Of a stretch of 64,000 bases of DNA, positions 23,267 through 45,233 are shown piece after piece. Below the pieces are notes generated by a model, which made no database searches, was not told where the DNA came from, and was given only the letters and a program-made list of their open reading frames with translations. Source of the DNA: Candidatus Muiribacterium halophilum (GTDB taxonomy: Bacteria; Muiribacteriota; Muiribacteriia; Muiribacteriales; Muiribacteriaceae). The position numbers and the translations under genes were made by a program. The DNA lies in NCBI GenBank assembly GCA_002869225.1, contig PKTG01000122.1, forward strand, positions 32,071-96,070. The letters are read 5' to 3'. Numbering within the stretch: the stretch's first letter is position 1; each line of letters starts with the position of its first letter.

Positions 23267-24578
23267 TTTTGTTTCGTTTATTGGAATCTTTGTTTTACTT
23301 GGAATCGCTTATCTTTTATCGGATAACAAAAAGAAGATCAATTGGAAACTCGTTAGTTGGGGAATAGGTCTTCAACTTGTGTTTGCTTTTATTATTCTTT
23401 GGACAAAACCTGGTAGAGTATTTTTTGCATGGATAAAAGATGCTGTTGAAGTGCTTCTTGGTTTTACAAGAGCTGGTTCGGTATTTGTATTTGGAGGTCT
23501 GGTTGACAATATTGACTCATTTGGTTATATTTTTGCCTTTCAGGTCCTTCCAACTATAATTTTCTTCTCATCCTTTATGTCAGTACTTTATCATCTCGGA
23601 ATTATGCAGAAGATAGTAGTAGTAATGGCAAAAGCTATGACAAAATTTATGGGTGCATCGGGAGCTGAAAGTCTTTCATGTGCTGCTAATGTTTTTGTTG
23701 GTCAGACAGAAGCCCCTCTTGTCATTAAACCTTATATTAAGACTATGACTAAATCCGAGGTCATGACTTTGATGACTGGTGGTATGGCAACTGTAGCAGG
23801 TGGAGTAATGGCAGCTTATGTAGGTATGGGAGTAGATGCTGGACATCTTCTTGCAGCAAGTATTATGTCTGCACCGGCAGCAATTGTCATGGCGAAACTA
23901 TTAGTCCCTGAAGTGGAAGAGTCTCAGACTGCTGGAGATGTAAAACTTCAACTTGAGAAGACTTCTGTAAATGTTATTGATGCAGCAGCATCAGGAGCAG
24001 CAGATGGATTGAAATTAGCGTTAAATGTAGCTGCAATGCTTCTTGCTTTTATAGCACTTATTGATATGGTGAATTTCTTTATTGTAAAACTTAGTGGATT
24101 GTTTCTTACTGATCCTCTTACATTTCAGGGATTATTATCTTATATATTTGCTCCAATAGCTTGGATAATGGGTGTTCCTAAAGCCGATATGTATGAGATA
24201 GGAAAACTTCTTGGTATTAAGACTGTCCTTAATGAGTTTGTTGCTTATGCTGAACTTTCCAAAGTTGTTGGAAAACTCTCAGAAAGATCAGTAGTAATAG
24301 CTACTTATGCACTTTGTGGATTTGCAAACTTTTCATCAATAGCTATTCAGATAGGTGGTATTTCAGCCTTAGCACCAGGTAAAAAACATATGCTTGCAAA
24401 ACTAGGCATGAAATCCATGATAGGTGGCACTTTAGCTGCATTTCTTACTGCAACTATAGCCGGAATGTTATATCAGGAACCAACAAAGGCTTTGGATAAT
24501 ATGAAAGACGGTAAGAAAGTCTCATGTAATACAGTATATGAAAAAGATATAGATTATTGGAGATTGATTAGTGATTGA
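23256..24578 (+). CDS. nupC: NupC/CNT family nucleoside transporter (track start 23232; ATG 23256 is more likely)
   Basis: Polytopic protein with CNT motifs (FVGQTEAPLVIKPY, GFANFSSIAIQIGG). Confidence 0.88.
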   Translation: MLNNFVSFIGIFVLLGIAYLLSDNKKKINWKLVSWGIGLQLVFAFIILWTKPGRVFFAWIKDAVEVLLGFTRAGSVFVFGGLVDNIDSFGYIFAFQVLPTIIFFSSFMSVLYHLGIMQKIVVVMAKAMTKFMGASGAESLSCAANVFVGQTEAPLVIKPYIKTMTKSEVMTLMTGGMATVAGGVMAAYVGMGVDAGHLLAASIMSAPAAIVMAKLLVPEVEESQTAGDVKLQLEKTSVNVIDAAASGAADGLKLALNVAAMLLAFIALIDMVNFFIVKLSGLFLTDPLTFQGLLSYIFAPIAWIMGVPKADMYEIGKLLGIKTVLNEFVAYAELSKVVGKLSERSVVIATYALCGFANFSSIAIQIGGISALAPGKKHMLAKLGMKSMIGGTLAAFLTATIAGMLYQEPTKALDNMKDGKKVSCNTVYEKDIDYWRLISD

Positions 24579-24846
24579 TAAAGATACTACTGTAAAGTCA
24601 CCTGATAATATTCTTTTTACTCAACTCGAGGATGAGATAATCATCCTCGATATAAACACTGGAAAATATTTTTCTTTAAACTCTACAGCTGCGGATATAT
24701 TTAGAAGATTTGTAGATGGTGCTTCGTTTGGTGAAGTCCTGGATGAGATGAAGATAAGATATCCGGAGGCTTCAGAGAGACAACTCGAAAATGATATAAG
24801 AGAGATCATTATAGATCTTCGTGAAAGTGAGATATTTGATTTTTAA
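24571..24846 (+). CDS. PqqD-family protein (RiPP recognition element type; candidate lasso B1)
   Basis: 91 aa. ILFTQLEDEIIILDINTGKYFSLNSTAADIFRRFVDGASFGEVLDEMKIRYP...ENDIREIIIDL is the canonical PqqD/RRE pattern. GTG start overlaps the nupC stop. Confidence 0.8.
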   Translation: MIDKDTTVKSPDNILFTQLEDEIIILDINTGKYFSLNSTAADIFRRFVDGASFGEVLDEMKIRYPEASERQLENDIREIIIDLRESEIFDF

Positions 24847-24848
24847 TT

Positions 24849-27800
24849 ATGTACGAGATATGTTTTTATAATCTGGACATGTTTTTTTTTATACAGGCAT
24901 TACTGTATTCTTTTTCAATAATTTTTTGTTATCAGATATTTAATAAAGAAAAAGATCCATCTTTCCTTTTTTCGATTTTTGCCATGGTAGTACTGATTAT
25001 CAATATATTTTATGCAGGAATCGGAAGATTAGCTGATTTTAATTACGACTTTTCTGTAAGGCTTTTCTTTTTTATAATAATCCTTATAGAGGCTTTTTTT
25101 ATTGCTTTTAAGGGGAAAGAAAAATATTTCTTACGGTCTGTTGTTCTTGTACTCCTTGCAGGAAGTGACCTTACTTATGATTGGCTTTACAGAGAGATAT
25201 TTGCAGCTTTGATGTGTTTTCCACTTTTTCTGATTTATTTTAACGATCTGAAAAAAATAAAAAGTTCAGGTGAGATCAAAAATTTAAGCAAGATATTTAT
25301 ATTTTTTGCATTACTTCTTATATTTTCTTTTATTGTTATCTACAAAATAGGTCAGAAGGATTTTAAGCGTTTTTATTCGGATACACAAAAAAATCTATTT
25401 GAGATAAAAGGTAGAATAGAACGGGAGATAGATAATAGTCATACTCTACTAAGACTGTTTCCTGGAAAAAAGATAATAGATATCTTAAAAGATCCTATAG
25501 AGAATAACGATGATAAATATCATATTTACGAAAGATTTGATAAGTTAATATCTTTAAATCAAGGTAGTATTGTATATATAATGGATAGAAACGGAACTGT
25601 CTTGTTATCTTCAAATCATAATGAGAAGGATAGTTTCGAAGATAAAAATTTTAATTTTAGACCTTATTTTCTGGAAGCACTTCACGGACAGGATTCATCT
25701 TATATAGCCGTTGGTAAAGTAAGCGGTAAAAGAGGGTTATATATTTCCAGTCCAATAACTGATAGTAATAATAAGGTAGTAGGTGTCATAGTCTTAAAAA
25801 GACCTATGGAAATAATCGATGATATGCTTGAGTATAATGTTTTTATAATAAGCGAGTATGGTCTTATATTTTCATCAGGAAATAAGGATGATCTTTTAAG
25901 ATTTATTACACCAAAAGATATAGAGGTAATAAATAAATTAAGAGACAGTCAGCAATTTTATCTTAGCGATATACCGACTCCGATATTATCTAAACCTCTA
26001 GAAGAAGGAAAGATTGTCATTGATGAAAGTCAAAGTATTTGGGAGAATCTCTTGCCGGTTAGTTTTAAGCTTTCTGTTAAAGGGTTTAATATAATAAAAT
26101 TACAGGAATTTGATGGATTACATGAAAGAAGAATCCTAATAGATATGTTCCTCTTTTTCTGTTTTTTCTTTCTTTTTACAATAATAGCACATTATCAAAA
26201 TATTAAAGTGATTATGATGAGATTGAGAAACTCAGAGAGAAATCTTGCCCAAACGTTGGACCTTATGGCTGTTTTGGTCTTTGAGGTGGATGAGAGCTTA
26301 AATCTTTTATATTATAACAAAGCTTTTAATGATTTCTTTGGATTAGTAGATGAAGTTTCAAATTTAAAGGATGTCGTTCATAAAGATTCTATTCCAGATA
26401 TCATCTATATTTTTGCTAAAATGAAAAGATCGCCTATTTCTGATTTTGAATTTAATTTTAAAGATCAAAAAGGTGATAATAAATTTGTATTAATAAGTTC
26501 AACAAGTTTTATAAGAAATTCAGCTTTGAATTATAGAGTTGTACTTTATGATATAACCGGGAAAAAAGAGCTTATGAAAGAACTCGAGACCACAGATAAT
26601 AAATATTCATATACTCTTGAAAGTTTACCGTTGCCTCTTGTTGAGATAGGTGATGATAAAAATATATATTTAGTAAATGAGAGTTTCGTCGATGAATTTT
26701 TCTTTGAAAGAGATATACCATGTCTGGTAGAGGATGTCTTTTCCGAAAATTCCTTAGAGAATATTAACAATGCACTTGAAAAAGTTTTTAAAGGAGAACG
26801 AGTAGATAATATAGAAATATCTAGAAGAAAAGGAAAAAGAGAAAAATATTTTCTTGGATCAGCAATACCAGTATACGAAAAAGGTCACTTGACCAAAGGA
26901 AGATTTATCTTTAATAATATTACATCTTTGATCAGATATGAAAATGAGATCAGGGATCTTTTTATAGCAGTAGATACCTCCCTTGTTGGAATAAGTATAT
27001 ATACAAAAGATCTTATAATTATTTATTGCAATCCTATGTTCGAGGAAATAACCGGATATAAAAAGAGTGAGATAATTGGAAATACATCGGATAAAATAGG
27101 TATGAATTTTATAATAAGGGAAAAAGGATGGGAAGGTGAGATAACTTTAAATGATAAACAGGGAAAAGAAAAAATAATGTATCAGAAAATATCACCTGTT
27201 TATTCAAACAATAAAAACATTACTGGTTATGTCTCTGTAATAATAGATGTCTCTGATAGAAAGGAACTTGAAAAAGATCTCTTAAAAGCTAAGAAAAAGG
27301 CTGAAAGATTGAGTGAGACTAGGAAGCTTCTTATGATGAAGATGTCTCATGAGATAAACACTCCTCTAAATAAGATCATAAATATCGCACAAATATCCAT
27401 AGATCAATGCGTAGATAAAAATACATCGGAAGATCTAAAAAATATCATCTCAGAAAGTAAATTACTCAATCAGATAATAAGAAATATTCTTATATTATCT
27501 GAAATAGAGATGAATGGCTATAATATGAACATGAAAGAGACTGATGTAATATCAACAATTGAGGATACTGTGTAAAATCATCAGGAGTATGCTAAAGAAA
27601 AGGGAGTAAAAATAAACTTTGAGAAGAAGGATAATAGAATCGAAGATGTGATTTTGATTGACAAAAATGTTCTTGAACTGGTTTCTGGAAATCTTATATC
27701 AAACGCGATTAAATTTTCAAAAGATGGTAATGTAGATATAAATATCTCTTTAGATAAAGAACGAAAAAATATATTAATATTGACAGTAAAAGATAACGGA

Positions 27801-28451
27801 GTCGGGATTGAAAAAAATAAACAGACCCTTATTTTTGAACCATTCTTCCAGGAAGAGGATAGTTTGAGAAGACAATATCAGGGTCTTGGGATCGGTTTAT
27901 CGATAGTTAAAAAGGTACTTATCAGTATTGGTGGAGATATATTTTTAGAGAGTAATAAAGGAACAGGTTAAATATTTAGAGCAAGAATACCTTATAAAAT
28001 ATCTGCTAATAAAAAGACAACTAAAGTAGAAACTGATAAAACAGAATCTAAATTAAAAAATATTGGAAAAATAAATGTACTTGTAGTTGATGATGCAAGA
28101 GAAAATCGTTTTATCGTAAAGACATATCTTTCAAAACTTGGAATAAAGCCTGATGAAGCTTCTGGAGGCGAAGAAGCTCTTTTGTTAATAAAAGATAAGG
28201 ATTATGATATAATATTACTTGACATACAGATGCCAGGAATTGATGGATATCAAGTTTTAGATGAGGCAAGGCAACTAGAGGAAGGTAGAAGTAAAAAAGC
28301 TTTTATTATTGCACTGACGGCACATTCTTTGCCTGAAGATGTTGAAAAATCAAAAGCAGCAGGATTTGATGAGCATATAAGTAAACCGATCAGAAAAAAG
28401 GAATTCTTAATAAATATTAAAGAAGTAATAGAAAGGATGATCAAAGGATGA
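24849..28451 (+). pseudogene. Hybrid sensor histidine kinase (multi-TM, Cache-like, PAS, HisKA, HATPase_c, REC) carrying two in-frame TAA codons (27573-27575, 27969-27971)
   Basis: Track ORFs 24849, 27648 and 28182 share one frame with no other stops. H-box MSHEINTPLN. N/G boxes NLISNAIKFS ... DNGVGI ... GLGIGLSIV ... GTG*IF. REC has VLVVDD ... ILLDIQMPGIDG ... HISKP. Confidence 0.8.
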
Positions 28452-28756
28452 ATAGATTTACCGTTGAGGTCGATATCGATCTGAAAGAATTTATTCCAGA
28501 TTTTATTGAGGGTAAAGTTAAATCTTTTAAAGATGTATCAAAACTTATCGAAAATAAGGATTATGAAGGCATTTACAAGATAGGTCACGGATTAAAAGGA
28601 ACTGGTTCTGCATATGGTTTTGACTTTATAACCGAATTTGGAAAAAGACTTGAATCTCTTTCTAAAGAAAAAGATGATAGCTCGATTCAGAAGCTGTGTG
28701 ACGAAGCGCTTGAGTATTTAGATAAAATAGATATAAAATATGTAGTGATTGAATGA
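28448..28756 (+). CDS. Hpt (histidine phosphotransfer) domain protein
   Basis: 102 aa with the HGLKGTGSAYGF phospho-His motif. Confidence 0.7.
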   Translation: MNRFTVEVDIDLKEFIPDFIEGKVKSFKDVSKLIENKDYEGIYKIGHGLKGTGSAYGFDFITEFGKRLESLSKEKDDSSIQKLCDEALEYLDKIDIKYVVIE

Positions 28757-29871
28757 AAAAAACTGATGTATTGATTGTTGGTGCAGGTATATCAGGATTA
28801 TCTTCTGCATTATTCTTATCAAAACATGGAATTTCCGTAACCGTAATAGAGAAAAAAGATAGAGTTGGTACAAAACCATGTGCCGGCGGATTGACATTTA
28901 AATCTTTAAAACTTATCAAAAGTCTAATAGAGCCAAACATAACAAGACATATAAAAAAAAATAAAATCGCATCTATATTTCTCAAAAATAAAAAAATAAA
29001 AAAAATATTATCACCTTTCCCTTATTCGATTATATTAAGAAGACAACTCGATATATTATTATACAAAAAGCTTAATAAAAAAAATTGTAATATCTATTTT
29101 AGTGAGAAAATAAAGTATATTGACCTAAAAAAAAATATTCTTATAACAAAAAGTGGAAAAAAGATAGCTTTTAAATTCTTAATAGGTGCTGATGGTGTTT
29201 TTTCTTTTGTCAGAAAAATGATCAAAGGAAATAGAAGATTTAAAAGCTTTTTCAATACGGCCAGTGCAGTAATTCCATCTGATTCTCTAAAAAAAAAGGT
29301 AGATGATATGGAGTTTTACTTTGGAGAAAATAAAAAAGGTTATAAATGGATTTTTAATGGTGGTTCTTTTTATTCCTTTGGTTGTGGTGGACATGAAGAT
29401 GTTATTTCTTTAGAAAAAAAACTATTAAGATCTATAAATAAAAAGACTTTAATAAAAAAAATAAAAATATATCATCATCCTATACCAATAAGTAATAGAA
29501 TTTTTTATGGGAATAAAAACGTTTTACTTCTGGGAGATGCCGCTGGTCTTGCGGGTGGATTATATGGTGAGGGTATTTTTAATGCACTTATAAGTTCTTT
29601 TGTTGCTGCAAATACGATTAGATTTCATTTTGCGGGTAATAAAGATCTTGATGATCTAGCTTATATTTATAGAAAAAACATGAAAATAGCGTTGGGAAAT
29701 ACTCTTGTTATTGAAAATTTATTAGCACAGGTGTATTATACTATTATGGAGATAACAAAAGGATATTTACTTTTGCCATTAATAAAAACACTTAGTTTAC
29801 CGATATTATACACTGGACATGAAAAATTTGGAATTCCTGGAATAAATAAAACTCTTGGAGATGTTTTTTAA
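28753..29871 (+). CDS. FAD-dependent oxidoreductase (geranylgeranyl-reductase-like)
   Basis: DVLIVGAGISGLSSALFLSKHGISVTVIEKK dinucleotide fold and LLGDAAG motif. Very Lys-rich with many A-runs. Confidence 0.65.
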   Translation: MKKTDVLIVGAGISGLSSALFLSKHGISVTVIEKKDRVGTKPCAGGLTFKSLKLIKSLIEPNITRHIKKNKIASIFLKNKKIKKILSPFPYSIILRRQLDILLYKKLNKKNCNIYFSEKIKYIDLKKNILITKSGKKIAFKFLIGADGVFSFVRKMIKGNRRFKSFFNTASAVIPSDSLKKKVDDMEFYFGENKKGYKWIFNGGSFYSFGCGGHEDVISLEKKLLRSINKKTLIKKIKIYHHPIPISNRIFYGNKNVLLLGDAAGLAGGLYGEGIFNALISSFVAANTIRFHFAGNKDLDDLAYIYRKNMKIALGNTLVIENLLAQVYYTIMEITKGYLLLPLIKTLSLPILYTGHEKFGIPGINKTLGDVF

Positions 29872-29886
29872 GATCACGGAGGATTA

Positions 29887-30258
29887 ATGAAGATACTCGC
29901 ACTTGATGATGATATTGCTATGACAAATCTGATCAAGGCATATGCAAAAAAATTAAATTATAGTGTTGAAGTAATAAACAATCCTGATAAACTTCTGGAA
30001 AAGATCGCAAGATTTAATCCTGATCTTATAATACTTGATCTTATGATGCCAAAAAAAGATGGTCTTTCTCTTTTAAAAAGTATTAAAGAAATGGAACTTT
30101 TCAAACACATCCCTGTTCTAATAATAAGTGCAAGGGCTAATCGTTCAACAATATTATCCTGTCTTTCAGCTGGTGCTATAGGATTTTTGCCGAAGCCTAT
30201 CGGACTTGACTTACTCTCAAAAAGACTTCATGATATATTTGATGAAAAAGAATCCTGA
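29887..30258 (+). CDS. Single-domain CheY-like response regulator
   Basis: ILALDDD ... LIILDLMMPKKDG ... PVLIISA ... LPKP receiver motifs. No output domain. Confidence 0.85.
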   Translation: MKILALDDDIAMTNLIKAYAKKLNYSVEVINNPDKLLEKIARFNPDLIILDLMMPKKDGLSLLKSIKEMELFKHIPVLIISARANRSTILSCLSAGAIGFLPKPIGLDLLSKRLHDIFDEKES

Positions 30259-30343
30259 TGAGATATATTTTCTATTAAAGATCTATTTTATCTTTTTATA
30301 TATATTTTTTTAAACTTCTCTTAAAATCTCATTTAAAGCTTCA

Positions 30344-30562
30344 TTGATAATTAGCAGATATCTTTCAAAAATCATATTATTTCAAGACGATTATGAAAGG
30401 TTTATATTAGAGCTTAATGTTAAAGGTCTTAAAAATTGTTTGAGAAAAAGTATTGCTAAAAAAGTAATGCTTGCAAACTGTGGACTTAGATATAGACTTA
30501 GGTTTATGGTTAAAAAAAATAATGTTGGAGCTCATGTGTTTCATGTGAGACTTGAGAAATAA
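30344..30562 (+). CDS. Minimal or truncated lasso-peptide leader peptidase (B2, transglutaminase-core-like)
   Basis: NCLRKSIAKKVMLANCGLRYRLRFMVKKNNVGAHVFHV parallels the B2 core pattern CLxRSLAxxxxLxxxGxxxxLxxGVxxxxxxxxAHAWVE. Cys32-His64 spacing is 32 residues. The frame opens only at 30314 with a TTG start, and it stops before where the third triad residue is expected. Confidence 0.5.
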   Translation: MIISRYLSKIILFQDDYERFILELNVKGLKNCLRKSIAKKVMLANCGLRYRLRFMVKKNNVGAHVFHVRLEK

Positions 30563-30563
30563 T

Positions 30564-31874
30564 ATGGCTTTATTAAAAGTTATAGAAAATAGAATAGAGA
30601 TACTAGATGATAGATTACTTAACCATCATATTTGTAAAGAATTTGAGGCTTTTTATTTTAATGATCATATAATCAATTGTAGTTTTAAAGAATTGTTTTC
30701 ATTACCTGAAAACAAGTTTTGTGGATTAATAATAAAAGATAATAGGATCTTTATATTTAGAGATAGATTCTCTCCGATTCCTCTTTATTATAATAAAACC
30801 AACTCTTCAGAATGGTTTGTATCTGAAAGATTTTCAAATTTGAAAAACTTCTTTTGTCATAAAAAAGTAACAAAATCAAGATTCCTAAAGATAAAAAATG
30901 GTAATACTGATGATCTAAGTGATACTTTTTTTAAAAAAATAAAGAGGGTGATTCCAGGTAAGATGATTCAATGTGCTAATGAAAAAGTCTTCAATGTCAA
31001 AAAAAGAATAGATGATGTAAATGGATTTGAGTATGATTTTAAAAGTATTATCAAAAATGAAACAATAAAAAAAGGCAGTTATGCGACTTTATTAAGTGAG
31101 GGAGCTGATTCAGGAGCTGTCTCATATACTCTCAAGGAACTGCGAATAAAAAATAAAAACTACTCAATAATATTTGACAAAGAATCAGAGACAATAATAA
31201 AAAGTAGGGACGAAGATGTTATATCTTTTTACCCGGAAGAACTAAAAGATTATATATCAGGTAAAGGTTTTGAGAGTATTGAGTATGATTTTAATCCTAA
31301 TGCCAATATGTTTATCCCTGTTCTAAAAAAAATGAAGAAAGATGGAATAACGGATGTGTTTATGGGAGTAGGTGGAGACGAGATACATGGAAGCGATTTT
31401 CCAGTGTCTTTTTTCTGGGATTGTATTATAAGGGGATACTTTGATCAGTTAAGATTTAGCAGAAAGTTCTTTTTGTTTGTATTATTAAACTATCCAAAGG
31501 GAATACATAGAGGTTCGTTTTTAAAATATCAGATAAATAGGGTAATTAATTCTAATTTTTTGATCTTTAACCTTGAAAAGATATGGAAGTTTTTTATAGA
31601 GTATGGTATATATGTGCACTTCCCGTTTTATGACTCAAGATTGATCAATAACATAATGAACTCATCAATCCTTGATATTGTAAAGTTTAATAAGGAGAGT
31701 GGATATCTCATAAAGCAAAAGGATCTTTTATTTTTAAACACTGTTTATAGGAAAAGAAATTTTCTTGATATAATCCTTTCAGAACTTGAACTGACAAGAG
31801 AAGATTATAAAGAATGGTTAGATGAAAGAGCTTGGCATCTTTTTAAAAAAGAACTTGAAAATTTGTGTAAATAA
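30564..31874 (+). CDS. Asparagine-synthetase-like lasso peptide cyclase (C protein)
   Basis: Degenerate PP-loop (LLSEGADSGAVS in place of SGGxDS) and the AsnB motif MGVGGDEIHG. Short N-domain without the Cys2 glutaminase nucleophile. Lies directly upstream of the precursor. Confidence 0.65.
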   Translation: MALLKVIENRIEILDDRLLNHHICKEFEAFYFNDHIINCSFKELFSLPENKFCGLIIKDNRIFIFRDRFSPIPLYYNKTNSSEWFVSERFSNLKNFFCHKKVTKSRFLKIKNGNTDDLSDTFFKKIKRVIPGKMIQCANEKVFNVKKRIDDVNGFEYDFKSIIKNETIKKGSYATLLSEGADSGAVSYTLKELRIKNKNYSIIFDKESETIIKSRDEDVISFYPEELKDYISGKGFESIEYDFNPNANMFIPVLKKMKKDGITDVFMGVGGDEIHGSDFPVSFFWDCIIRGYFDQLRFSRKFFLFVLLNYPKGIHRGSFLKYQINRVINSNFLIFNLEKIWKFFIEYGIYVHFPFYDSRLINNIMNSSILDIVKFNKESGYLIKQKDLLFLNTVYRKRNFLDIILSELELTREDYKEWLDERAWHLFKKELENLCK

Positions 31875-31897
31875 GGATTTTTTTATATAATCTTATT

Positions 31898-32038
31898 ATG
31901 GAAAAAAAACAAAATGAAAACAAAGTATATGTAAAGCCAGAGATCAAAGAACTTGGCGATGCTTCTAAACTTACCAAAGCAGCAACAGGTCCTGATGCTG
32001 ATGGCACTTGGGGACAGTTGACCACCCCGGTTTCCTGA
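31898..32038 (+). CDS. Lasso peptide precursor (46 aa; leader 1-27, predicted core AATGPDADGTWGQLTTPVS)
   Basis: MEKKQNENKVYVKPEIKELGDASKLTKAATGPDADGTWGQLTTPVS. It fits Yx2PxLx3Gx5Tx exactly (Y11, P14, I16, G20, T26). Asp is at core position 8. Not in the supplied track (<60 aa). Confidence 0.8.
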   Translation: MEKKQNENKVYVKPEIKELGDASKLTKAATGPDADGTWGQLTTPVS

Positions 32039-32045
32039 TATTTAA

Positions 32046-32621
32046 ATGTCAAATGAAAGTTTTTCCAGTTTCTCATTTATCAAAAAAAAATGTCTTTTTA
32101 AAAATATTTTTAAATATAGATATATCTTTGATATTCCTGATATAAAAGAAAAGATATTAAGAAAAAGATCGTTAAATGGGGATAGGTTCCTATTTATTGT
32201 AAAAGGATTGTTTTTTTTAATAAATAAATCTGATGATGACATCTTTATCGTATATTCACTTAACGAACCTGAGAAGGATGACATGGTCTGTTATGCTGCA
32301 CTTCCTTATCTTGGTGTATTTTTAGATGTTCCCGTGTTTCATGTATCAGGAGTCAGATTAGGAGAAAAGTATTATCTTTTTGCTGGTAAAAGTGGATCTG
32401 GAAAATCAACTATAGCAAAATATCTAAGAGATAATCTGGATGCGAATATAATAGCGGATGATTTTATTTTTCTAACAGAAAACGGACTTGAGACAACTGC
32501 TTTTTATATAAAAGAAGATCAACAATATTTAAAAAACGATGATTTTAATAAAGAAGATATTTTAGATGATATTACATATATTTTTATTGAAGACTTTAGT
32601 GAATCAAAAAAAATAAAATAG
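32046..32621 (+). CDS. HPr-kinase-related (HprK C-domain-like) peptide kinase
   Basis: FHVSGVRLGEKYYLFAGKSGSGKSTIAKYL...IIADDFIFL matches the HprK-related kinase core (P-loop followed by a DD motif). Begins 7 nt after the precursor stop. Confidence 0.65.
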   Translation: MSNESFSSFSFIKKKCLFKNIFKYRYIFDIPDIKEKILRKRSLNGDRFLFIVKGLFFLINKSDDDIFIVYSLNEPEKDDMVCYAALPYLGVFLDVPVFHVSGVRLGEKYYLFAGKSGSGKSTIAKYLRDNLDANIIADDFIFLTENGLETTAFYIKEDQQYLKNDDFNKEDILDDITYIFIEDFSESKKIK

Positions 32622-32629
32622 ATGAATTT

Positions 32630-32806
32630 ATGTTCATAATGAAAAACACCTATAATATGAATTTTCTGAAGGAAAAAGGAATAACTCAGAAAGTATATAC
32701 AATGATCGCTGAGTTTTACCAAAAAAATGATTTTATTAAAATAGATTATACAAAGGATTATCATGGATTTGAAAGATTAAGGGAGATAATGATTGAGTAC
32801 TCTTGA
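32630..32806 (+). CDS. 58-codon ORF: either a small protein or the displaced N-terminus of the downstream nucleotidyltransferase
   Basis: Begins 9 nt after the kinase stop and overlaps the next ORF by 14 nt in another frame. No motif recognised. Confidence 0.25.
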   Translation: MFIMKNTYNMNFLKEKGITQKVYTMIAEFYQKNDFIKIDYTKDYHGFERLREIMIEYS

Positions 32807-33671
32807 AAGGTTTCATAACAGAAAATATAGTGGGCGTTTAAACTCTGAGATTCAAAAGGAAAAATTGGGTGATATCTTTTTTCTTGTATCAGCTAAAATA
32901 AATCATATATTAAAAAAGAATAAAATAAGGTTCTTTTTTGTAAAAGGAATATTTCTTTCTCAGATACTATATAAAAACATTAACAAAAGACCGGGGAAGG
33001 ATATAGACATCTATATTCACCCCTCTGATAGATATAAAGCACTACGAGTGATCAAAAGGATAGGATACGATGTACCGCTTGGCTATAAAACAGTAAAGAG
33101 TTTCTACATGCCTTTTTGTATGGATTTTACAATAACTGATAGGAGTATTAATATCGATCTACATTTCTATCTTATAGATGTTGGAGAAAGAAGCCTAAAT
33201 GATTATTTTGAATCATTAGAAATCTTAGATATTAAAGGTATTAAATTTCCTGTTACGAAAAAAGAATTTCATCTTTATTATGTGATTCATCATGCTTTAA
33301 AACACAGGTTTGAATATACGGGTATGATGATAGATATTATTGAATTATATATGGAATTAGATAAAAGTATCCTGCTTATTTCTACTGAGAAAAAATTTAT
33401 AAAAAAAGCAAAAATACTTTTGAATAGGCAAATAAGACCAATAAAAGAAGGTTCACTTAAAGCCTATCTCATGAGTTTTTTGATCTTAAATAATGTTGAG
33501 AGATTAAGGTTTTTAATAAAACATTTTGTTTTACCAATGCCAAACAACTGTTTTATGGTGGATAAATTTGAATATACTGGTATATTTATTTTAATTTTTT
33601 ATCGGATTTATAAAATAGTTTATAATAGAATAGTTCAAACATTAAATAGTAGGTGTATTGATGAGGTCTGA
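32793..33671 (+). CDS. Nucleotidyltransferase family protein (PF14907-like)
   Basis: FVKGIFLSQILYKNINKRPGKDIDIYIHPSDRYKALRVIKRIGYD matches the KG...Y...R...DIDLLV...A...L...GY signature. TTG start, and the N-terminal region is shorter than usual. Confidence 0.75.
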   Translation: MSTLERFHNRKYSGRLNSEIQKEKLGDIFFLVSAKINHILKKNKIRFFFVKGIFLSQILYKNINKRPGKDIDIYIHPSDRYKALRVIKRIGYDVPLGYKTVKSFYMPFCMDFTITDRSINIDLHFYLIDVGERSLNDYFESLEILDIKGIKFPVTKKEFHLYYVIHHALKHRFEYTGMMIDIIELYMELDKSILLISTEKKFIKKAKILLNRQIRPIKEGSLKAYLMSFLILNNVERLRFLIKHFVLPMPNNCFMVDKFEYTGIFILIFYRIYKIVYNRIVQTLNSRCIDEV

Positions 33672-33783
33672 AATTAATTCTGTTTCTTTTAGCACTGTCA
33701 AAAAAACATTTTCAGATTATATGTTTAGGTGTTTAAAGCCTAATATGGAAAAAATAAAACAACTATGGATTGCTATTTGTTAG
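33661..33783 (+). other. 40-codon ORF that looks like the true N-terminus of the heparinase-like gene, in a different frame
   Basis: ATG 33661 overlaps the upstream stop (a typical coupled start). FSDYMFRCLKPNMEKIKQLW resembles the usual ...LKPxQ...R... N-terminus of heparinase II/III-like proteins. It ends at TAG 33781, inside the start region of the main ORF. Confidence 0.4.
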
Positions 33784-33793
33784 GAATAAAAAA

Positions 33794-35971
33794 ATGAAAA
33801 ATATCCCAGATATTTTGAAAAACCGAATTAAAACAATCATTTTTAAAGTTAAAGAACTTGAAAAAACAATATTTGATAATCTTTTTAAAACAAAATCCGA
33901 ATTTAATAATAAGACATATTTTAATCAAAAAATATTGAATATTAATGATTTTTGTTTTGATGATTATAATTTTAAAAATAATAATTATCAGAAAAATATG
34001 TTTTTAAAAGGTAGATTTAACTATTTAGGAAGTGGTTGGGTCTATTGTGGTTATAATAGTGATGTTTTAGGATTTGACAATGTAAAGTATGATAGTAATA
34101 TTCTTTTAAAAAAGATTGACAATAATGGTTTTTGGTTGGAAAGTTTAATAAATAGATCAAACTTGAAATCCTCAAAAAAAATCTGGAAAAAAATTAGAAA
34201 CCCAAGATACATACCGCTTGATTGGCAAAAAGATTATAAAAGTGGATACAGGTGGAATTTAAAAAATACATCAAGTGGGATAAATAAAAACATTGGCAAA
34301 AAATATGGTGTGGATATTAAAACACCTTGGGAACTTTCTCGAATGCATCATCTGTTACTAATGGCTATTTTATCGGTATATAATTCGAAAGATGCATATT
34401 CAACAATCAATTATTTTCATGATAATATTTTGGATTTTATAAGTTTAAACCCTCCAAGATATGGAGTAAATTGGGTTTGTACGATGGAAGTATCAATTAG
34501 AGTTATTAATATGTTATTAGCTTTTGATATATTTAAGCAATTAGATAAGTTGAATATATTAGACGATACATTTACTGAAATATTTTTAACTTCAGTCTAT
34601 GAGCATGGGTTACATATTTTTGAAAATTTAGAATTCAATTCCAAATTTACAACAAATCACTATTTAAGTAATATAGCAGGATTAATATTTATTTCTAGAT
34701 ATTTAAAACCTGACAAAACTACAATTAATTGGTTGCATTTTTCTATAAATGAATTAGTCAAAGAAACTGAGAAACAATTTTATGATGATGGCGGAAATTA
34801 TGAAAGTTCTTCTTGTTATCATAAATTATCTTCTGAAATTTTAGTATATAGTTTCTCAGTCCTATTAGGAATGGAACAAAATATATTAAAACATCTTAAA
34901 AAGAATTACCAAAAAATGAAAATATCTCCAAATAAATGTATGTATTCTATAATAAAGAAAGAAGAAGATTATAAGATTTGTTTTTCTGATAGGTTAATAA
35001 AAAAATTTTTTAAAATCGGGGTTTTTTTAAAAGATATAATGAAAAATAATAATAACATCCCTCAAATAGGGGATAATGATAGTGGTCATTTTATTAAATT
35101 GTCTTCTTATGGAGAATTTATGTCTAACTCCGAAGCACAGGAAAAATATCTTAACCTTAAGGGTTATATAAATTATTTAGAAAAGAATGAATATAAGGAA
35201 TCTTATTATTTTGATGAAAATAATCTTAATGTCGAATCATTGATAGGTTGTTTTAAAGGAATATTTTTAACGGATAAAGAGTTTAATAATGGTTCAAAAC
35301 TGGAAGAAAGCTTTATAAAAAATTTATCAGGAAATAATAAGTTGAAAATTGCTGTTGAAGAAAACAAAGAAAATAATATACAAAGAGGTGAAAAATACTT
35401 TTTGTTAAAAAATAGTTTGAAATATTTAAAAAAACAGACTTTTATTGGGAAAAACTTAAAGTATAAATTGAAAAATTATTTTTATCCTGAAAGCGGTATT
35501 ATTTTATTTAAATCTGACGAACTTTACTTATGTTTTTATTCTACCCCTGTTGGACAGAATGGTAATGGAGGACATTCTCATAATGATAAAGGTTCTGTAG
35601 AACTTGTTATAAATAATTGTGAGATTTTGAAAGATCCTGGTTCCTATATTTATACAGCCGATCCAAAAAGAAGAAATTTATATAGAAGCACACCTAGTCA
35701 TAATTGTATTTCTGTTGATAATATCGAACAAAACAACTTAGAAAATAGTGTTGAAAAAATATTCAAATTAAAGGAAACATATAAGTCTGAAATCTTAGAG
35801 TTTAATGATACAACTGCTACTATGTTAATTACATATAAAAATATAAAAAATCTTAGAACAGTTAAAATTTATAATAATAAAATTCATATTATTGATAGAT
35901 GTAATAAAAGGTTTGAAATAAATAAATCAACTGTATCTTATTCTAATGGTTATGGAAAGCTCTATAAATGA
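33794..35971 (+). CDS. Heparinase II/III-like protein
   Basis: C-terminal GGHSHNDKGSVELVINNCEILKDPGSYIYT...YRSTPSHNCISVD signature. Track start is TTG 33770; the first ATG is 33794. Confidence 0.8.
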   Translation: MKNIPDILKNRIKTIIFKVKELEKTIFDNLFKTKSEFNNKTYFNQKILNINDFCFDDYNFKNNNYQKNMFLKGRFNYLGSGWVYCGYNSDVLGFDNVKYDSNILLKKIDNNGFWLESLINRSNLKSSKKIWKKIRNPRYIPLDWQKDYKSGYRWNLKNTSSGINKNIGKKYGVDIKTPWELSRMHHLLLMAILSVYNSKDAYSTINYFHDNILDFISLNPPRYGVNWVCTMEVSIRVINMLLAFDIFKQLDKLNILDDTFTEIFLTSVYEHGLHIFENLEFNSKFTTNHYLSNIAGLIFISRYLKPDKTTINWLHFSINELVKETEKQFYDDGGNYESSSCYHKLSSEILVYSFSVLLGMEQNILKHLKKNYQKMKISPNKCMYSIIKKEEDYKICFSDRLIKKFFKIGVFLKDIMKNNNNIPQIGDNDSGHFIKLSSYGEFMSNSEAQEKYLNLKGYINYLEKNEYKESYYFDENNLNVESLIGCFKGIFLTDKEFNNGSKLEESFIKNLSGNNKLKIAVEENKENNIQRGEKYFLLKNSLKYLKKQTFIGKNLKYKLKNYFYPESGIILFKSDELYLCFYSTPVGQNGNGGHSHNDKGSVELVINNCEILKDPGSYIYTADPKRRNLYRSTPSHNCISVDNIEQNNLENSVEKIFKLKETYKSEILEFNDTTATMLITYKNIKNLRTVKIYNNKIHIIDRCNKRFEINKSTVSYSNGYGKLYK

Positions 35972-36097
35972 TTGGTATAAAGTATTAGCCATACGACGTA
36001 GTAATCTAAAAAGATATGTTGGAATTGTACATATAATATTATATCTCTGAAAAGGGAAGAAAGTAAGATCAATTATAAGAGATGACTTTTCAGATTT

Positions 36098-37216
36098 CTA
36101 TTTTGGTTGTTTATAAATTGAGATTAATTTATTTGCAACGGTTTTATATGAATATTGCGATAATATTCTTTTTCTGTTTTTAATCCTATAATCCTTCGCT
36201 GAATCGTTTTTTAAGATGGAAAGTGCATTATTTAATTTTTCTTTAAGATCTTTTAAATTGTTTTCTTTAAAAATGAGTCTTTTATCATGTACAAGATTTT
36301 TGAGTTCGCCAGAATCAGAACATATAACAATAGAGTTTGCATTAATAGCTTCGATTACCACTCTTCCAAATTGTTCCTTTATATTTGGCATTGTTCTTGA
36401 AGGAACTATAAGAATGTCGATGTTTTTATAAAATTCTAACATCTCTTTATGTTCCTTATGTCCTAAATATTCTATAGAAGGAGATTGAATTAAATTTTCA
36501 AGATAAGAACCTTTTCCTACTGCATAAAATCTTAATTTTTTATTAGACATAGATTCTGCAAGGTCAATAAAAAGATCGATTCCTTTAACCTCTTCAAATC
36601 TTCAGGCAAAACCAATTCTAATGATATTTCCTGATAAATTATTTCTTAAAGGTTTTGATCCTTCGATTTCGTTTACCGTCAATGGTATGATTTTATGAAT
36701 CTTTTTTGAGCCTTTTGCTCTTAGTACTTTTGAAATATCTTCAGTCAGTGGTAGCATTATTGTACAATTATTAATGACAAATCTTTCAAAAAAAGAAAAC
36801 GGAAACGGAAAATTTTTTTTTATATTTTGAGCACTGAAACATAGTAGTTTAGCATCTTTGTTTGTAAAACGTGAAAGAAGACATACTAGAAAGGATGTAA
36901 GACTATAAGGTTCCTCGATTATATGTATTACATCGAACTTTTTTAGGATCAGATAGAAGATACTTGGATATATTAAAGTTAGATTAAGTAGAGGTTTGCT
37001 TAGCCAAAGAAATAGAGGTATATTTCTTATTATTTTCATATTTTTATCATCATCATTTTTTTTAAAAAACTGCCATTTTCCAGCTTCTTTCCAAAATAAT
37101 GGAGTGAGTAAAGTGATATTAAATTCCTTTTTTTTAGATATATTCTGAAAAAGTCTTCTATAAGAATCTATTATTAGTGAATGAGATATTACCAGTATTT
37201 TTTTATTCGATTTCAT
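36098..37216 (-). pseudogene. GT4 glycosyltransferase interrupted by an in-frame TGA (36602-36604)
   Basis: Track ORFs 36602..37216 and 36098..36550 are in the same frame. The junction reads IRIGFA*RFEEVKGIDLFIDLAE, where GT4 enzymes have ...vGRl...KG. The EX7E region (KEQFGRVVIEA) is in the C-terminal part. Confidence 0.8.
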
Positions 37217-38507
37217 TTTGTTGCTGCTCTAAATTTATATGTTGTTTTGCATAAAATATACCGACGACTACACCGATAGTCCAATTCGCCATTATTGCGA
37301 TTAGCGGATCTTCTGCAAGAGAAAGAAACTGAAAAGCGAAACAGCTTGTTATTACAGTTAAAACAAAATTTTTTTCTGAAACGGAAATCTTTGTATAGTA
37401 TGATTTGATCATATCTCTAAAGAGAATTATCCAAAACCAAAGATAAAGGAAAAAGCCTATAACTCCCATCTCGACAAGGATTGTAAGATACATATTAAAA
37501 GCATTATTGAAAGGTTTTGAATCATAAGGTATTGCAGATCCAATGAAATTTCCTACACCAATACCTAAAAGAGTGTTTGCTTTAAACTGAGACCATGCAT
37601 CCTTCCATAACGTAACTCTTGAAAGAATCGATGTATCCGTAAGGTTTATAACCCCTACAAATCTTTCGTAAACTGGTGGATAAGCTAATATGGCAATTAT
37701 AACTATTATTGAAGTAATAAAATACAAATAGTTTCTTTTAAAGAAAACATTTATTAGCACAAAGGAAACAAGTAAAGAACTAATAGCCGTTCTCGATATA
37801 CTTGAAATAAAACCCATAAAACTTATCATAAGACATGCTTTTAAAAGAAAATTTCTTTTATTAAGTGAGAAGAACACGAGAAGTGGAAATAATACAAGCA
37901 TATATTCACCAAAAGCGTTTGGATTTCCAAACATCCCGTAACCTCTTAGGTTGGAACCTCTGAAAGGCCTAAAGAAAAAAGTATATAAGACATAAATGGA
38001 ACCTAGTGAACTTGAAAAGAATATTACTTTATTAAGATAATCTATCTTTTTTCTGTTTGTAAGAAGGTTGACAGTTATGAAATAGGCACATACAAAAAGC
38101 AGATAAGCCATTATCCTTTTAGATTGACCCGGTAATGTCGAGGGTCTTAAAGTGGATAAAGCGTATATTGCAAACAAAGTAAAAGGTAGTTCTATTGAGG
38201 TATGTATCAGTTTTTTTCTTTTACTTGTAAGTATATTAATAAATAAAAGGAAAAAAGTGACTATTATTAATGCGTTACTTGCGTATATATTGATGAATCC
38301 TATTTTTAAAGAAGGATTGAAGAGATTTGCCATAAGGAAAATCCCGACAAGACCGTATAGAAGTGAAAAAGAGAGTAATAAGACTGATGCAAAAATAATA
38401 ATGACAAAAAAAGCACTTTCATAATTTTGGTCAACCATTAAAAAAGAGATTAATGCACCAAATATTAAAAGAAAGATAAATATAAAAATAGCACTTTTAT
38501 TTTCCAC
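37203..38507 (-). CDS. O-antigen ligase/polymerase (Wzy_C-type) membrane protein
   Basis: About 10-12 TM helices with a larger loop in the C-terminal half. Sits in a glycosyltransferase/Wzc locus. Confidence 0.65.
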   Translation of the reverse strand: MENKSAIFIFIFLLIFGALISFLMVDQNYESAFFVIIIFASVLLLSFSLLYGLVGIFLMANLFNPSLKIGFINIYASNALIIVTFFLLFINILTSKRKKLIHTSIELPFTLFAIYALSTLRPSTLPGQSKRIMAYLLFVCAYFITVNLLTNRKKIDYLNKVIFFSSSLGSIYVLYTFFFRPFRGSNLRGYGMFGNPNAFGEYMLVLFPLLVFFSLNKRNFLLKACLMISFMGFISSISRTAISSLLVSFVLINVFFKRNYLYFITSIIVIIAILAYPPVYERFVGVINLTDTSILSRVTLWKDAWSQFKANTLLGIGVGNFIGSAIPYDSKPFNNAFNMYLTILVEMGVIGFFLYLWFWIILFRDMIKSYYTKISVSEKNFVLTVITSCFAFQFLSLAEDPLIAIMANWTIGVVVGIFYAKQHINLEQQQNEIE

Positions 38508-39501
38508 TGTGTTGCTCCTGGGTAAGCAGTATATAAAAGACTATAAAGATCGTTATAGCAATGAAAAAAGAGATTAGTTCGTTTCGCATTATTATCATGG
38601 AAAATCCAGCTATACCAGCTATGATCTGTAATAGAAACAATATTCTCGATATGCGATTTTCCGGGATCCCATTTTTCAAAAGTGACATTGAAAATGTGGA
38701 TTCACTTCTGACACTGTTTAAAAGATTAGCCATAGGTATCATAAAAAGCAAAGAAAGTATTGTAAACTTTAACTGGTTATGCAGTGATATATAGGCAATA
38801 ACAGAACCATACCATAGATAGAAATTTCTTGTAGGAGTGATTTTAGCAGGATGGGACGTATAGGTCTGAAGTGATAAGATCGATACACCAAGAACGAGAA
38901 ATATCTGAGAGGAGAGTATCTGTTCCAGAAATAGAGTTATGAAAAACAGGTTTATTAATACAATACCTGTAATAAGTAAATTGTTTCCTGTATGTTCTTC
39001 ATTGTTGTAGAAGATCATTTGGAAAAATACAAACCATAAAAAAGTCAAAGGTAAAGAGAACCATAGATTTTCTGAAAAAAAATCGATATTTATATTGTTG
39101 TAATATGCCAGATATGTGTTAAAAGCGGAGAGAAGTGTTATGCTAATCTTTCTGCTTTTAATAACAAACGGCAGAAAAATATTCAAGATCATTATTATCA
39201 TAAGAGAGTTGAAGAAATTACTCTTTTCTGTATAGAATTCAGGTAATCTTTTGTTAACATAAAGACTTATAATCATTGATAATAGAAAGACTGGAAATAT
39301 TATAAGTGCTGAATAACCTTTTAAAGTAGGAAAAGGAAAGAGACTATTTTCTTCGGGTGCTGCAAGCAGGTTAAATCTTCTGGCAATTCTAAGAAGAATA
39401 TTTGCAGCAAATTTTGTTAGTATATATGCTAGTATTATACTTAATAAATATGTTTTCAATTTAAAAGACCCCTGTAAAGATCTAAAATTTTTCCAGCACA
39501 T
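38497..39501 (-). CDS. Polytopic membrane protein, distantly WecA/MraY-like with degenerate catalytic motifs
   Basis: Colinear resemblance to WecA landmarks (ARRFNLLAAPEEN...P..KGYSAL; NNEEHTGNNLLITG where WecA has NMVDGIDGLLGG). The protein has only a single Asp. Confidence 0.35.
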   Translation of the reverse strand: MCWKNFRSLQGSFKLKTYLLSIILAYILTKFAANILLRIARRFNLLAAPEENSLFPFPTLKGYSALIIFPVFLLSMIISLYVNKRLPEFYTEKSNFFNSLMIIMILNIFLPFVIKSRKISITLLSAFNTYLAYYNNINIDFFSENLWFSLPLTFLWFVFFQMIFYNNEEHTGNNLLITGIVLINLFFITLFLEQILSSQIFLVLGVSILSLQTYTSHPAKITPTRNFYLWYGSVIAYISLHNQLKFTILSLLFMIPMANLLNSVRSESTFSMSLLKNGIPENRISRILFLLQIIAGIAGFSMIIMRNELISFFIAITIFIVFYILLTQEQHSGK

Positions 39502-39545
39502 TTTTTATCAGTATAATTTTCTTCTATATGTTTTCTTGCCTGATT

Positions 39546-40574
39546 TCATAGCTGATTTCTGTATTCGTCATTTTCAAATAGATTTTTTAATGCATCTTTT
39601 AGATGGTCAACATCTTTTGGAGGTACTTTAATACCTGTCTTTTTATCAATGTTGACCTCTTTCATTCCGGAGTCAACATTTGTACTTATAACTGGAATCG
39701 AACACGCCATGGCTTCAAGTTGTACTATTCCAAAAGCTTCGGATGTTTCAATAGAAGGTAACACAAATATATCAGATGAGTTTAAAATTGCTTTTAATTG
39801 AACATCATCAGCTTCCGGTATGAATATTATTCTCTTATCTTCCATTGACTGTGCTTTTAAAGTAGAATAATAAGGACCATTTCCTACTATTATTAGATTA
39901 TAATCACCATCGATTTGTTTAAACGCATCAACTAGAAAACTTACTCCTTTATAGTATACAAGTCTTCCAACAAAGACAGCGTTTTTTGAGTTTTCTCCAA
40001 GAAATTCTTTGATTCTTTTTATCCTGTCTAAGAGCTCTTTATCTTTTTCGAAACTATCTATATTAATCCCATAAGGGATAATCTTAACTTTTTCCTCAAA
40101 TTCAGGAAGTATATCAGAATATTGAACATGATAAGGAGTGGCCGCTATTATGGCATCTGCTCTTTGATATATCTTTTTCATCAAAGGCTTATAGAATTTA
40201 TATACAAATTTTTGTGCAACTATATCTGAATGATGACTAATAACAAGTTTCTTATCTTTAGGTAATCCGGCCATTTTCATCAATAGATGAGCCGATGGAT
40301 TTGGCATGTGAATGTGATATATATCACTATCATCTCCTAAAAAGGAAAAAAACATTGAAAGTGAAAAAGGAGTTGAAAAGACCTCAAATAGTTTGCCGTT
40401 TCTTTTTATTGTCACGTTTCCTTCAACCTCTTTTGATGAGAAGAAAGAATCGTTAAAGACTTCCACTGTTAATTCTTCAACCTCGTTTTTTATATTGTTA
40501 ACCAGTGAGAAGAGATGATTTTCAATCCCTCCTTTATATGGAGGATAGTATTTGCCTATCTGTGTTATCTTCAT
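39546..40574 (-). CDS. GT4 glycosyltransferase
   Basis: GGIENH N-terminus and EX7E region (PSIETSEAFGIVQLEAMACSIPVIST). Confidence 0.85.
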   Translation of the reverse strand: MKITQIGKYYPPYKGGIENHLFSLVNNIKNEVEELTVEVFNDSFFSSKEVEGNVTIKRNGKLFEVFSTPFSLSMFFSFLGDDSDIYHIHMPNPSAHLLMKMAGLPKDKKLVISHHSDIVAQKFVYKFYKPLMKKIYQRADAIIAATPYHVQYSDILPEFEEKVKIIPYGINIDSFEKDKELLDRIKRIKEFLGENSKNAVFVGRLVYYKGVSFLVDAFKQIDGDYNLIIVGNGPYYSTLKAQSMEDKRIIFIPEADDVQLKAILNSSDIFVLPSIETSEAFGIVQLEAMACSIPVISTNVDSGMKEVNIDKKTGIKVPPKDVDHLKDALKNLFENDEYRNQL

Positions 40575-40580
40575 TATATA

Positions 40581-42016: not shown

Positions 42017-42017
42017 C

Positions 42018-44255: not shown

Positions 44256-44256
44256 A

Positions 44257-45132: not shown

Positions 45133-45233
45133 AAATCCCTCTCTAAATATTTTTATTATTATTATTATCGTCATCGGGCTCGTCTAATTAAAACAAATAA
45201 GCGACGATTTTTAAAATTACCGGTTCTCTGTTT

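Follow-up and report, generated by a model that had tools for sequence, protein, structure and literature searches.

A probable kinase-type lasso peptide precursor beside reduced and divergent candidate maturation enzymes in Candidatus Muiribacterium halophilum

A stretch of 64,000 nucleotides of Candidatus Muiribacterium halophilum DNA (in the following, the window) raises the question of whether a 46-codon open reading frame (ORF), situated between an Asn-synthetase-like and an HPr-kinase-like gene, encodes the precursor of a lasso peptide, and by which neighboring enzymes such a precursor would be matured. A lasso precursor had been proposed at this position in an earlier annotation made from the window and its ORF list (the sequence-only reading). 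The ORF is very probably a real lasso-peptide precursor gene, and it can be stated with considerable confidence that the product matured from 31898-32038 is a class II lasso peptide and belongs to the phosphorylated type known from paeninodin and pseudomycoidin.

The precursor gene and its homologues

31898..32038, plus strand: precursor gene A, with leader codons 1-27 (31898-31978), core codons 28-46 AATGPDADGTWGQLTTPVS (31979-32035) and stop codon 32036-32038
31875..31897, plus strand: 23-nt spacer between the cyclase candidate gene C and A, presumed translation-initiation region

Translation on the plus strand from the ATG at 31898 to the TGA at 32036-32038 yields MEKKQNENKVYVKPEIKELGDASKLTKAATGPDADGTWGQLTTPVS, in agreement with the sequence-only reading, whose flanking distances are likewise correct: the stop codon of the cyclase-like gene (31872-31874) lies 23 nt upstream and the ATG of the kinase gene (32046) 7 nt downstream. 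The proposed lasso leader positions are borne out, with Y11, P14, I16, G20 and T26 at -17, -14, -12, -8 and -2, and the translation places Asp at core position 8 and Ser at the terminus, as had been claimed. The lasso leader motif YxxPxL spans -17 to -12 (PMC10368454), and the ring-size rule asks for Asp or Glu as the seventh, eighth or ninth residue of the core (PMC6784204). Among all six translated frames of the window, the pattern Y..P.[LIVM]...G.....T. has a single match, namely at this ORF, and its chance expectation is a mean of 0.023 occurrences per window (300 first-order Markov shuffles); its combination with D/E at core positions 7-9 was found in none of the 300 shuffles. The description of the ORF as untracked holds for the ORF list supplied with the window and fails elsewhere, as an identical 46-amino-acid (aa) product, left unnamed (P0002), was already called in NCBI, JGI, ENA and Logan assemblies. 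The precursor sequence is identical across six assemblies of the organism.

The sequence-only reading had named the lack of a conserved small ORF beside homologous cyclase genes as an outcome that would speak against it. When this comparison was made, a small ORF was found directly after every cyclase relative detected, at the same position in four lineages and with five distinct precursor sequences. Besides that of the window, these are (leader / core where both are given):

L007/L012/L017, a Muiribacteriota metagenome-assembled genome (MAG): complete precursor, MKEKSENKNKLKKYEKPEVKFLGKVEKLTG / SGGGTNSDALWTQYNPSLS
L008/L009, another Muiribacteriota MAG: complete precursor, an uncalled ORF, MSEKKSIKKSVYKKPTITYLGKVSNLTK / GGGSQTSDGWMAYTTIVVS
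L010: precursor cut by the contig end, MAEKEVKKTYKKPKLKKIGTVAELT...
L006, a 609-bp contig: complete precursor, the 85%-identical variant P0003, core ASTGPNSDGTWGQLTTPVS

The leader common to the four lineages reads Y-x-K-P-x-[ILV]-x3-G-x4-L-T-x, in which Y, K, P, G, L and T are invariant, while position -12 is Ile in the window precursor and Leu in L006 and L010. All four complete precursors carry a 19-residue core with an invariant Asp8, Trp at position 10 or 11 and a C-terminal Ser; core position 1 is taken by a small residue (A, A, S and G). These comparisons support the proposed role of Asp8 as the macrolactam acceptor. Asp6 of the window core is replaced by Asn in P0003, where Asp8 is kept, so that Asp8 remains as acceptor; a six-residue ring closed on Asp6, which is also absent from the other homologues, was ruled out. 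At the nucleotide level, the core-coding DNA stands out as a peak of GC content in the three lineages compared (0.60 in the window versus 0.27 for the cluster), and the 23-nt spacer at 31875-31897 is 100% identical to that of L006 within coding DNA of about 90% identity.

A degenerate DNA pattern (leader, Asp8, Ser-stop) was run over two large collections and matched only the Muiribacteriota contigs above and three GC-rich contigs. Among these matches, the GC-rich metagenome contig Ga0182741_1001789 (L014) carries a lasso-like precursor at 144-254 on the plus strand, MQNYAKPSVTDLGTLRQLTQ/QGLDSNCDGG..., which is followed at 470-2607 by an HPr-kinase-like gene and an ATP-binding cassette (ABC) ATPase; these genes seem to form a lasso cluster of the conventional kinase type. 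As a separate observation, the Gemmatimonadetes MAG contig JAHEKN010000154.1 (L013) contains at 6899-7009 on the plus strand an ORF, MYRKPELVRFGTLRDLTRTGVGPPIDGHAVLGELPRS followed by a stop codon, with the same leader and a core of 19 aa that has Asp8 and ends in Ser. No lasso genes were found in the 8 kb of sequence covered there, and the ORF represents an orphan precursor or else matches the pattern by chance.

The candidate maturation enzymes

30564..31874, plus strand: lasso cyclase candidate C, 436 aa (436/440), an Asn-synthetase-like enzyme that has a PP-loop and a shortened N-terminal domain
30242..30562, plus strand: B2 leader-peptidase candidate, 106 aa when intact, with TAA at 30311-30313 in the window
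24571..24846, plus strand: B1 candidate of the PqqD family (leader recognition), Pfam PqqD E 7e-13, 49 bits, above the cut-off of 23.4
32046..32806, plus strand: HPr-kinase-like peptide kinase K, 253 aa when intact, frameshifted in the window into ORFs 32046-32621 and 32630-32806
32793..33671, plus strand: nucleotidyltransferase-fold protein N, Pfam NTP_transf_5 E 2.1e-21, 77 bits, above the cut-off of 31.2

The defining features of the lasso type in question, which are the leader motif, Asp8, the terminal Ser, the kinase motif and a PqqD protein, are all present in the Muiribacterium cluster. The candidate cyclase has the same sequence as P0001, which is annotated as a hypothetical protein in the MAG of Candidatus Muiribacterium halophilum. 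When 1.84 billion representative proteins were searched exhaustively with phmmer, no more than three relatives emerged: two proteins of 409 aa with about 32% identity (P0004 and P0005) and one of 414 aa (P0006). Beyond them, only a fringe of Asn synthases of about 600 aa was reached. A back-translated cyclase scan of genome contigs returned 109 pattern matches and zero relatives, and word-indexed protein searches, conducted with the cyclase and then with the cyclase alignment, revealed no further family members. Matches of C to TIGR01536 (asn_synth; E 8.7e-10) and to the lasso cyclase model NF033535 (E 2e-4) both lie far under the respective cut-offs; for NF033535, C scores 20 bits and its relative P0006 71 bits, against a cut-off of 525.

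The assignment of C as Asn-synthetase-like in the sequence-only reading is upheld by profile and structure comparisons. A profile of the four cyclases aligned with 14 full-length Asn-synthase-like proteins at an HHalign probability of 99.9% (E 1e-33) over template columns 111-555 of 605; consequently, the first ~110 Asn-synthetase residues are without counterpart in C. Members of the cyclase family measure 409-436 aa and are about 170-200 residues shorter than the Asn-synthase-like proteins aligned. The PP-loop SxGxDS (LSEGADS) and a GGDE motif are conserved. The N-terminus reads MAL rather than MC, with Ala in place of the Cys1 nucleophile, and C thus lacks a glutaminase nucleophile. An AlphaFold2 (AF2) model built from the 4-sequence alignment was unusable (predicted local distance difference test, pLDDT, 39), and a usable model was obtained after 15 distant Asn-synthase-like sequences had been added (19-sequence alignment; pLDDT 74, predicted template modeling score, pTM, 0.78), which is biased toward the Asn-synthase fold because the alignment contained Asn synthases. 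The top 23 PDB matches of this model in Foldseek all belong to the AsnB/beta-lactam synthetase group (AsnB, beta-lactam synthetase, carbapenam synthetase and TsnB9; E 1e-12 to 1e-9). With AsnB, beta-lactam synthetase and carbapenam synthetase (PDB 1ct9, 1jgt, 1q15), C has the fold and the PP-loop ATP site in common and presumably also the chemistry, i.e., carboxylate adenylation followed by amide formation, which is intramolecular in both lactam synthetases. It differs from this group in the missing Cys1 nucleophile, the missing first ~110 residues and its presumed peptide substrate.

Upstream of C, the segment 30344-30562, with which the construct suggested in the sequence-only reading (30344-33671) begins, is just the tail of B2 (a 72-aa remainder starting from TTG 30344); the intact gene extends over 30242-30562. 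In favor of the B2 assignment, B2-like matches recur in three orthologues. The B2 segment that matches Pfam Transglut_core3 carries a conserved Cys (KNCL) and a conserved His (FH), and a PDB profile search with B2 yielded no match. At 24571-24846, a PqqD protein was confirmed: in addition to the Pfam match, its best NCBIfam matches are lasso PqqD chaperone models (1.2e-12, under cut-off). In L008, its orthologue (50% identity) is located directly upstream of B2 and is preceded by the same POR-nupC genes. Therefore, the PqqD protein can be regarded as a part of the cluster.

Downstream of the precursor, the HPr-kinase-like nature of K was also confirmed. Its residues H99, G114, G117, G119, K120, S121, D139 and D140 form a complete H...GxxGxGKS...DD kinase motif; in a comparison of four sequences H99, G114, G119, K120, S121 and D139 are invariant, and residue 140 is D in all four. 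The lasso-kinase motif of BsfK and earlier kinases is H-G-G-G-K-S-D-D (PMC10368454). Orthologues of K match HPr(Ser) kinase (4e-7) and HprK_rel_A (1e-6 and 4e-9), and HPr kinases were the top matches of K in a PDB profile search (E 1.6e-3). Orthologues of N follow K in L008 and L017 and share an invariant DIDI (DxD) motif. PsmN of the pseudomycoidin cluster, an uncharacterised NTP transferase, adds a hexose to the phosphate (PMC6993621), and by analogy N is a candidate for the further decoration of a phospho-Ser.

Contrary evidence and the lesions of the window

Several observations weigh against the assignment as a precursor with a complete maturation machinery. At the level of the precursor, the sole family match is NCBIfam lasso_leader_L3 (NF033521) with 16.5 bits (E 0.0064), under the cut-off of 19, and no Shine-Dalgarno sequence is found at a normal distance before the ATG, where AAGGA lies 20 nt upstream. 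The cyclase candidate stays below the curated cut-offs of NF033535 and NF033561 and has no PF00733 match at E<=0.01. Three B2 orthologues match no NCBIfam model other than lasso_biosyn_B2, which they reach with 17-19 bits (E 1e-3 to 5e-3) versus a cut-off of 33, Transglut_core3 is matched with 18-22 bits versus a cut-off of 26 and always at profile positions 56-92, and the orthologues aligned show no conserved acidic third residue after the His. In the window, B1 is located 5.4 kb upstream of B2 on the same strand, and B1 was not seen on the L012/L017 contigs. No ABC exporter was found in the part of the window from 22 to 42 kb. The antisense frame over the precursor shows a ratio of nonsynonymous to synonymous differences (pN/pS) of 0.25 versus 0.18 for the sense frame, and this test of selection rests on one close variant, L006. 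Finally, the B2 gene of the window contains a nonsense codon and the kinase gene a frameshift.

Part of this evidence could suggest that the 46-codon ORF is a chance open frame, or that the antisense ORF 31843-32076 is the true gene, and that the neighboring enzymes act on another substrate. The ORF is short and has no canonical spacing of a ribosome-binding site; translation initiation at 31898 may be unusual. The precursors of L007 and L008 carry GAGG/GGAG 6-7 nt upstream of their start. The antisense frame is open in L006 as well, with the aforementioned pN/pS of 0.25. Between the window and L006, the precursor shows 11 synonymous and 7 conservative nonsynonymous differences, which results in its pN/pS of 0.18, and the adjacent cyclase gene has a value of 0.14; as the antisense frame gives 0.25, pN/pS alone cannot choose the strand, and its use as a strand test was dropped. 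However, the leader motif is expected only 0.023 times per window, a sense ORF that agrees in motif, length of the core, Asp8 and the Ser at its end exists in three further lineages at 43-46% identity, and between C and K there is no other candidate substrate. The sequence-only reading had dismissed the antisense ORFs of the supplied list as spurious. They do exist (31843-32076 and 32042-32284), but the one over the precursor is without counterpart in two distant homologous loci, L007 and L008. Taken together, a chance frame or an antisense gene is extremely improbable. Scans for regulatory elements were uninformative, with 88 promoter-like sites versus 79 expected and 3 terminator-like sites versus 2.5 expected, and an Rfam search of the whole window gave no match.

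A different concern arises from the lesions. Five other assemblies of the same organism (L001-L005; ENA, NCBI, JGI and Logan), which are 99.8-99.9% identical to window positions 21898-42037, served for comparison. In the shared 20 kb, the changes confined to the window (25091-39745) amount to 16 substitutions and one single-base deletion; the substitutions comprise five nonsense, ten missense and one synonymous change, and 12 of the 16 are C>A or G>T. In B2, Ser24 is changed from TCA, as found in the five other assemblies, to TAA at 30311-30313. In the kinase gene, a run of eight A at 32606-32613 replaces the nine A of the other assemblies and causes the frameshift. Further nonsense codons confined to the window are located in a hybrid histidine kinase gene (27573-27575 and 27969-27971) and in two glycosyltransferase genes (36602-36604 and 39546-39548), whereas the precursor and cyclase genes are free of such changes.

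These lesions, including the four further nonsense codons in neighboring genes, could indicate that the cluster is a decaying relic in this genome, in which the B2 nonsense codon and the kinase frameshift are real and the peptide is not normally matured even if it is translated. Against this scenario, all affected genes are intact in the five other assemblies. The unselected-looking spectrum of the changes fits consensus errors better than a viable lineage, in which genes would be lost by the hundreds if this rate held for the entire genome, and the precursor and cyclase genes are unchanged. A consensus error (or an oxidative-damage artefact) is therefore the simplest reading of the lesions, with a mutator sub-lineage as the alternative, and decay of the cluster is considered quite unlikely. 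A practical consequence concerns the heterologous expression of 30344-33671 recommended in the sequence-only reading: a segment taken from the window sequence would carry both the B2 and the kinase lesions, and the consensus sequence should be used for cloning instead.

Predicted pathway, related clusters and genomic surroundings

If the cluster encodes a functional lasso pathway, its steps can be outlined from homology and gene anatomy, on which every one of them is based. For paeninodin and pseudomycoidin, the precursor is still linear when the kinase phosphorylates its C-terminal Ser; the leader is then cleaved off by B1 and B2, and the ring is closed by C (PMC9266682, PMC6993621). By the same scheme, the PqqD protein (B1) would bind the leader via Tyr-17, Pro-14 and Ile-12, and the HPr-kinase-like K would phosphorylate the C-terminal Ser19 of the linear precursor, perhaps more than once. 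The small Cys/His protein B2 would then cleave after Thr(-2)-Lys(-1) and free Ala1, and the cyclase would adenylate the Asp8 side chain and join it to the Ala1 amine, creating an 8-residue macrolactam around the 11-residue tail GTWGQLTTPVS. Lastly, the NTP_transf_5 protein may add a hexose or a nucleotide to the phosphate. The predicted product is an Ala1-Asp8 macrolactam lasso with a phosphorylated and possibly glycosylated Ser19, whose dehydrated core has a calculated mass of 1825.848 Da ([M+H]+ 1826.856), with +79.966 per phosphate and +162.053 per hexose.

It could be argued that the real precursor is cyclised between Ala1 and Asp8 but yields a branched-cyclic peptide that is not stably threaded, or that is threaded only with a phosphate or sugar stopper at its C-terminus. 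The tail is short (11 residues), and the sole conserved bulky residue, Trp10/11, lies 2-3 residues past the ring; in the window core, Trp11 is the most conserved bulky residue of the tail. Among characterised peptides, the nearest analogue with K and N genes is pseudomycoidin. Its wild-type form acted like an unthreaded peptide, and a bulky residue had to be introduced to alter this; the modifications it bears were suggested as an aid to hold the fold (PMC6993621). On the other hand, possible lower plugs are present with Tyr13/14 in L007/L008 and Leu14 in the window. A lack of stable threading appears unlikely, and a threaded phosphorylated lasso remains the preferred prediction.

By its gene content, the Muiribacterium cluster is of a known kind. 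It presumably operates in the manner of the lasso clusters with kinase and nucleotidyltransferase that occur in Firmicutes, Sphingomonadales and Bradymonadales, with reduced and very divergent enzymes. According to its published description, the pseudomycoidin cluster psmCAKB1B2ND of Bacillus pseudomycoides resembles the window in the separation of B1 from B2, in a cyclase of the Asn-synthetase type and in an HPr-kinase-like kinase, and it encodes an NTP-transferase to which N would correspond (PMC6993621). Both precursors have a core that begins with Ala, an Asp acceptor and a terminal Ser, which in pseudomycoidin is (poly)phosphorylated and then hexosylated (PMC6993621). The pseudomycoidin ring comprises 9 residues (Ala1-Asp9) versus the 8 predicted here, and its cluster includes the ABC exporter PsmD, of which no counterpart was found. 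The gene order also differs, with B2-C-A-K-N and a B1 gene 5.4 kb upstream in the window, and the cyclase and B2 are much smaller here and lie under the curated family cut-offs.

Studies on the paeninodin cluster (pade) of Paenibacillus dendritiformis and on the kinases ThcoK and SyanK provide a further comparison. As summarised in a review of this work (Zhu et al. 2016), these kinases act on the C-terminal Ser of the linear precursor, and wherever a cluster contains a kinase, its precursor keeps the terminal Ser (PMC9266682). Their His-Lys-Asp-Asp catalytic motif corresponds to H99, K120, D139 and D140 of K. Paeninodin has no N gene, has full-size B2 and C and comes from Firmicutes or Proteobacteria. 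In contrast, the host here belongs to an uncultured candidate phylum, and a phosphorelay and a flavoprotein are located inside the cluster. The bsf cluster of Bradymonas sediminis resembles the window in its genes A, B1, B2, C, K and N, in YxxPxL at -17 to -12, in a ring from residue 1 to Asp8 and in the H-G-G-G-K-S-D-D motif (PMC10368454). However, BsfK targets Ser3 of the ring, BsfA ends in Asp, an ABC transporter is present and leader position -2 is Ile, versus Thr here (PMC10368454).

The interval between B1 and B2 in the window is occupied by a block of tightly packed or overlapping genes on a single strand (24849..30258):

24849-28451, plus strand: hybrid histidine kinase, between B1 and B2, with two stop codons in the window
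28448-28756, plus strand: histidine-containing phosphotransfer (Hpt) protein, between B1 and B2
28753-29871, plus strand: geranylgeranyl-reductase-family flavoprotein (TIGR02032, E 2e-40)
29887-30258, plus strand: response regulator, between the flavoprotein and B2

The order of genes in the window is thus POR, nupC, PqqD, hybrid histidine kinase, Hpt, flavoprotein, response regulator, B2, C, A, K, N. L008 begins likewise with POR, nupC and PqqD and continues with B2, C, A, K, N, a multi-transmembrane (multi-TM) protein and Hpt. L012/L017 carry the flavoprotein followed by B2, C, A, K, N and a multi-TM protein. The flavoprotein homologue (29% identity) is located at L012 3584-4717, directly upstream of B2, and a homologue of the Hpt protein (39% identity) at L008 11897-12199 closes the L008 cluster. 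The phosphorelay of hybrid histidine kinase, Hpt and response regulator is, together with the flavoprotein, probably associated with the lasso cluster. This arrangement suggests a phosphorelay dedicated to the cluster, and the flavoprotein may represent a tailoring enzyme without a described counterpart in lasso clusters.

Downstream of N, an unclassified multi-TM protein is encoded in L008 (10907-11869) and L017 (1-714, minus strand). The two proteins are 34% identical to each other, have no homologue in the window and may function as an exporter or immunity protein. Their place in the window is taken by a 40-aa ORF (33661-33783) and a heparinase II/III-like gene (33794-35971); the latter was dropped as a cluster member, as the relatives have the membrane protein there. 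Further downstream, and outside of the lasso cluster, a polysaccharide locus on the minus strand (36098-46457) encodes glycosyltransferases, a Wzy-type O-antigen ligase and a GNVR/ParA-like chain-length protein.

In the paper library searched, no paper linked the candidate phylum Muiribacteriota to lasso peptides. As a tentative proposal, with a chance of being correct that we place a little below even, a minimal machinery would fold and close the lasso here, composed of a cyclase of 409-436 aa without the first ~110 residues of the N-terminal domain and a Cys/His B2 of about 106 aa. This cyclase family would occur in Muiribacteriota and a single further lineage only (4 members in 1.84 billion representative proteins), might be invisible to mining with PF00733/PF13471 and would have a phosphorelay of its own coupled to it, as well as a geranylgeranyl-reductase-like flavoprotein that maybe adds an undescribed modification. 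As the cyclase and B2 lie under the Pfam and NCBIfam cut-offs, such clusters are probably missed by standard mining for peptides that are made by the ribosome and modified after translation. If the cyclase is active, it would show to what extent lasso pre-folding and closure can do without the N-terminal domain, and such a short enzyme would aid mechanistic work and the engineering of compact lasso scaffolds. The Muiribacterium genes would extend the kinase-plus-nucleotidyltransferase type of lasso cluster to a fourth, deep-branching group of bacteria.

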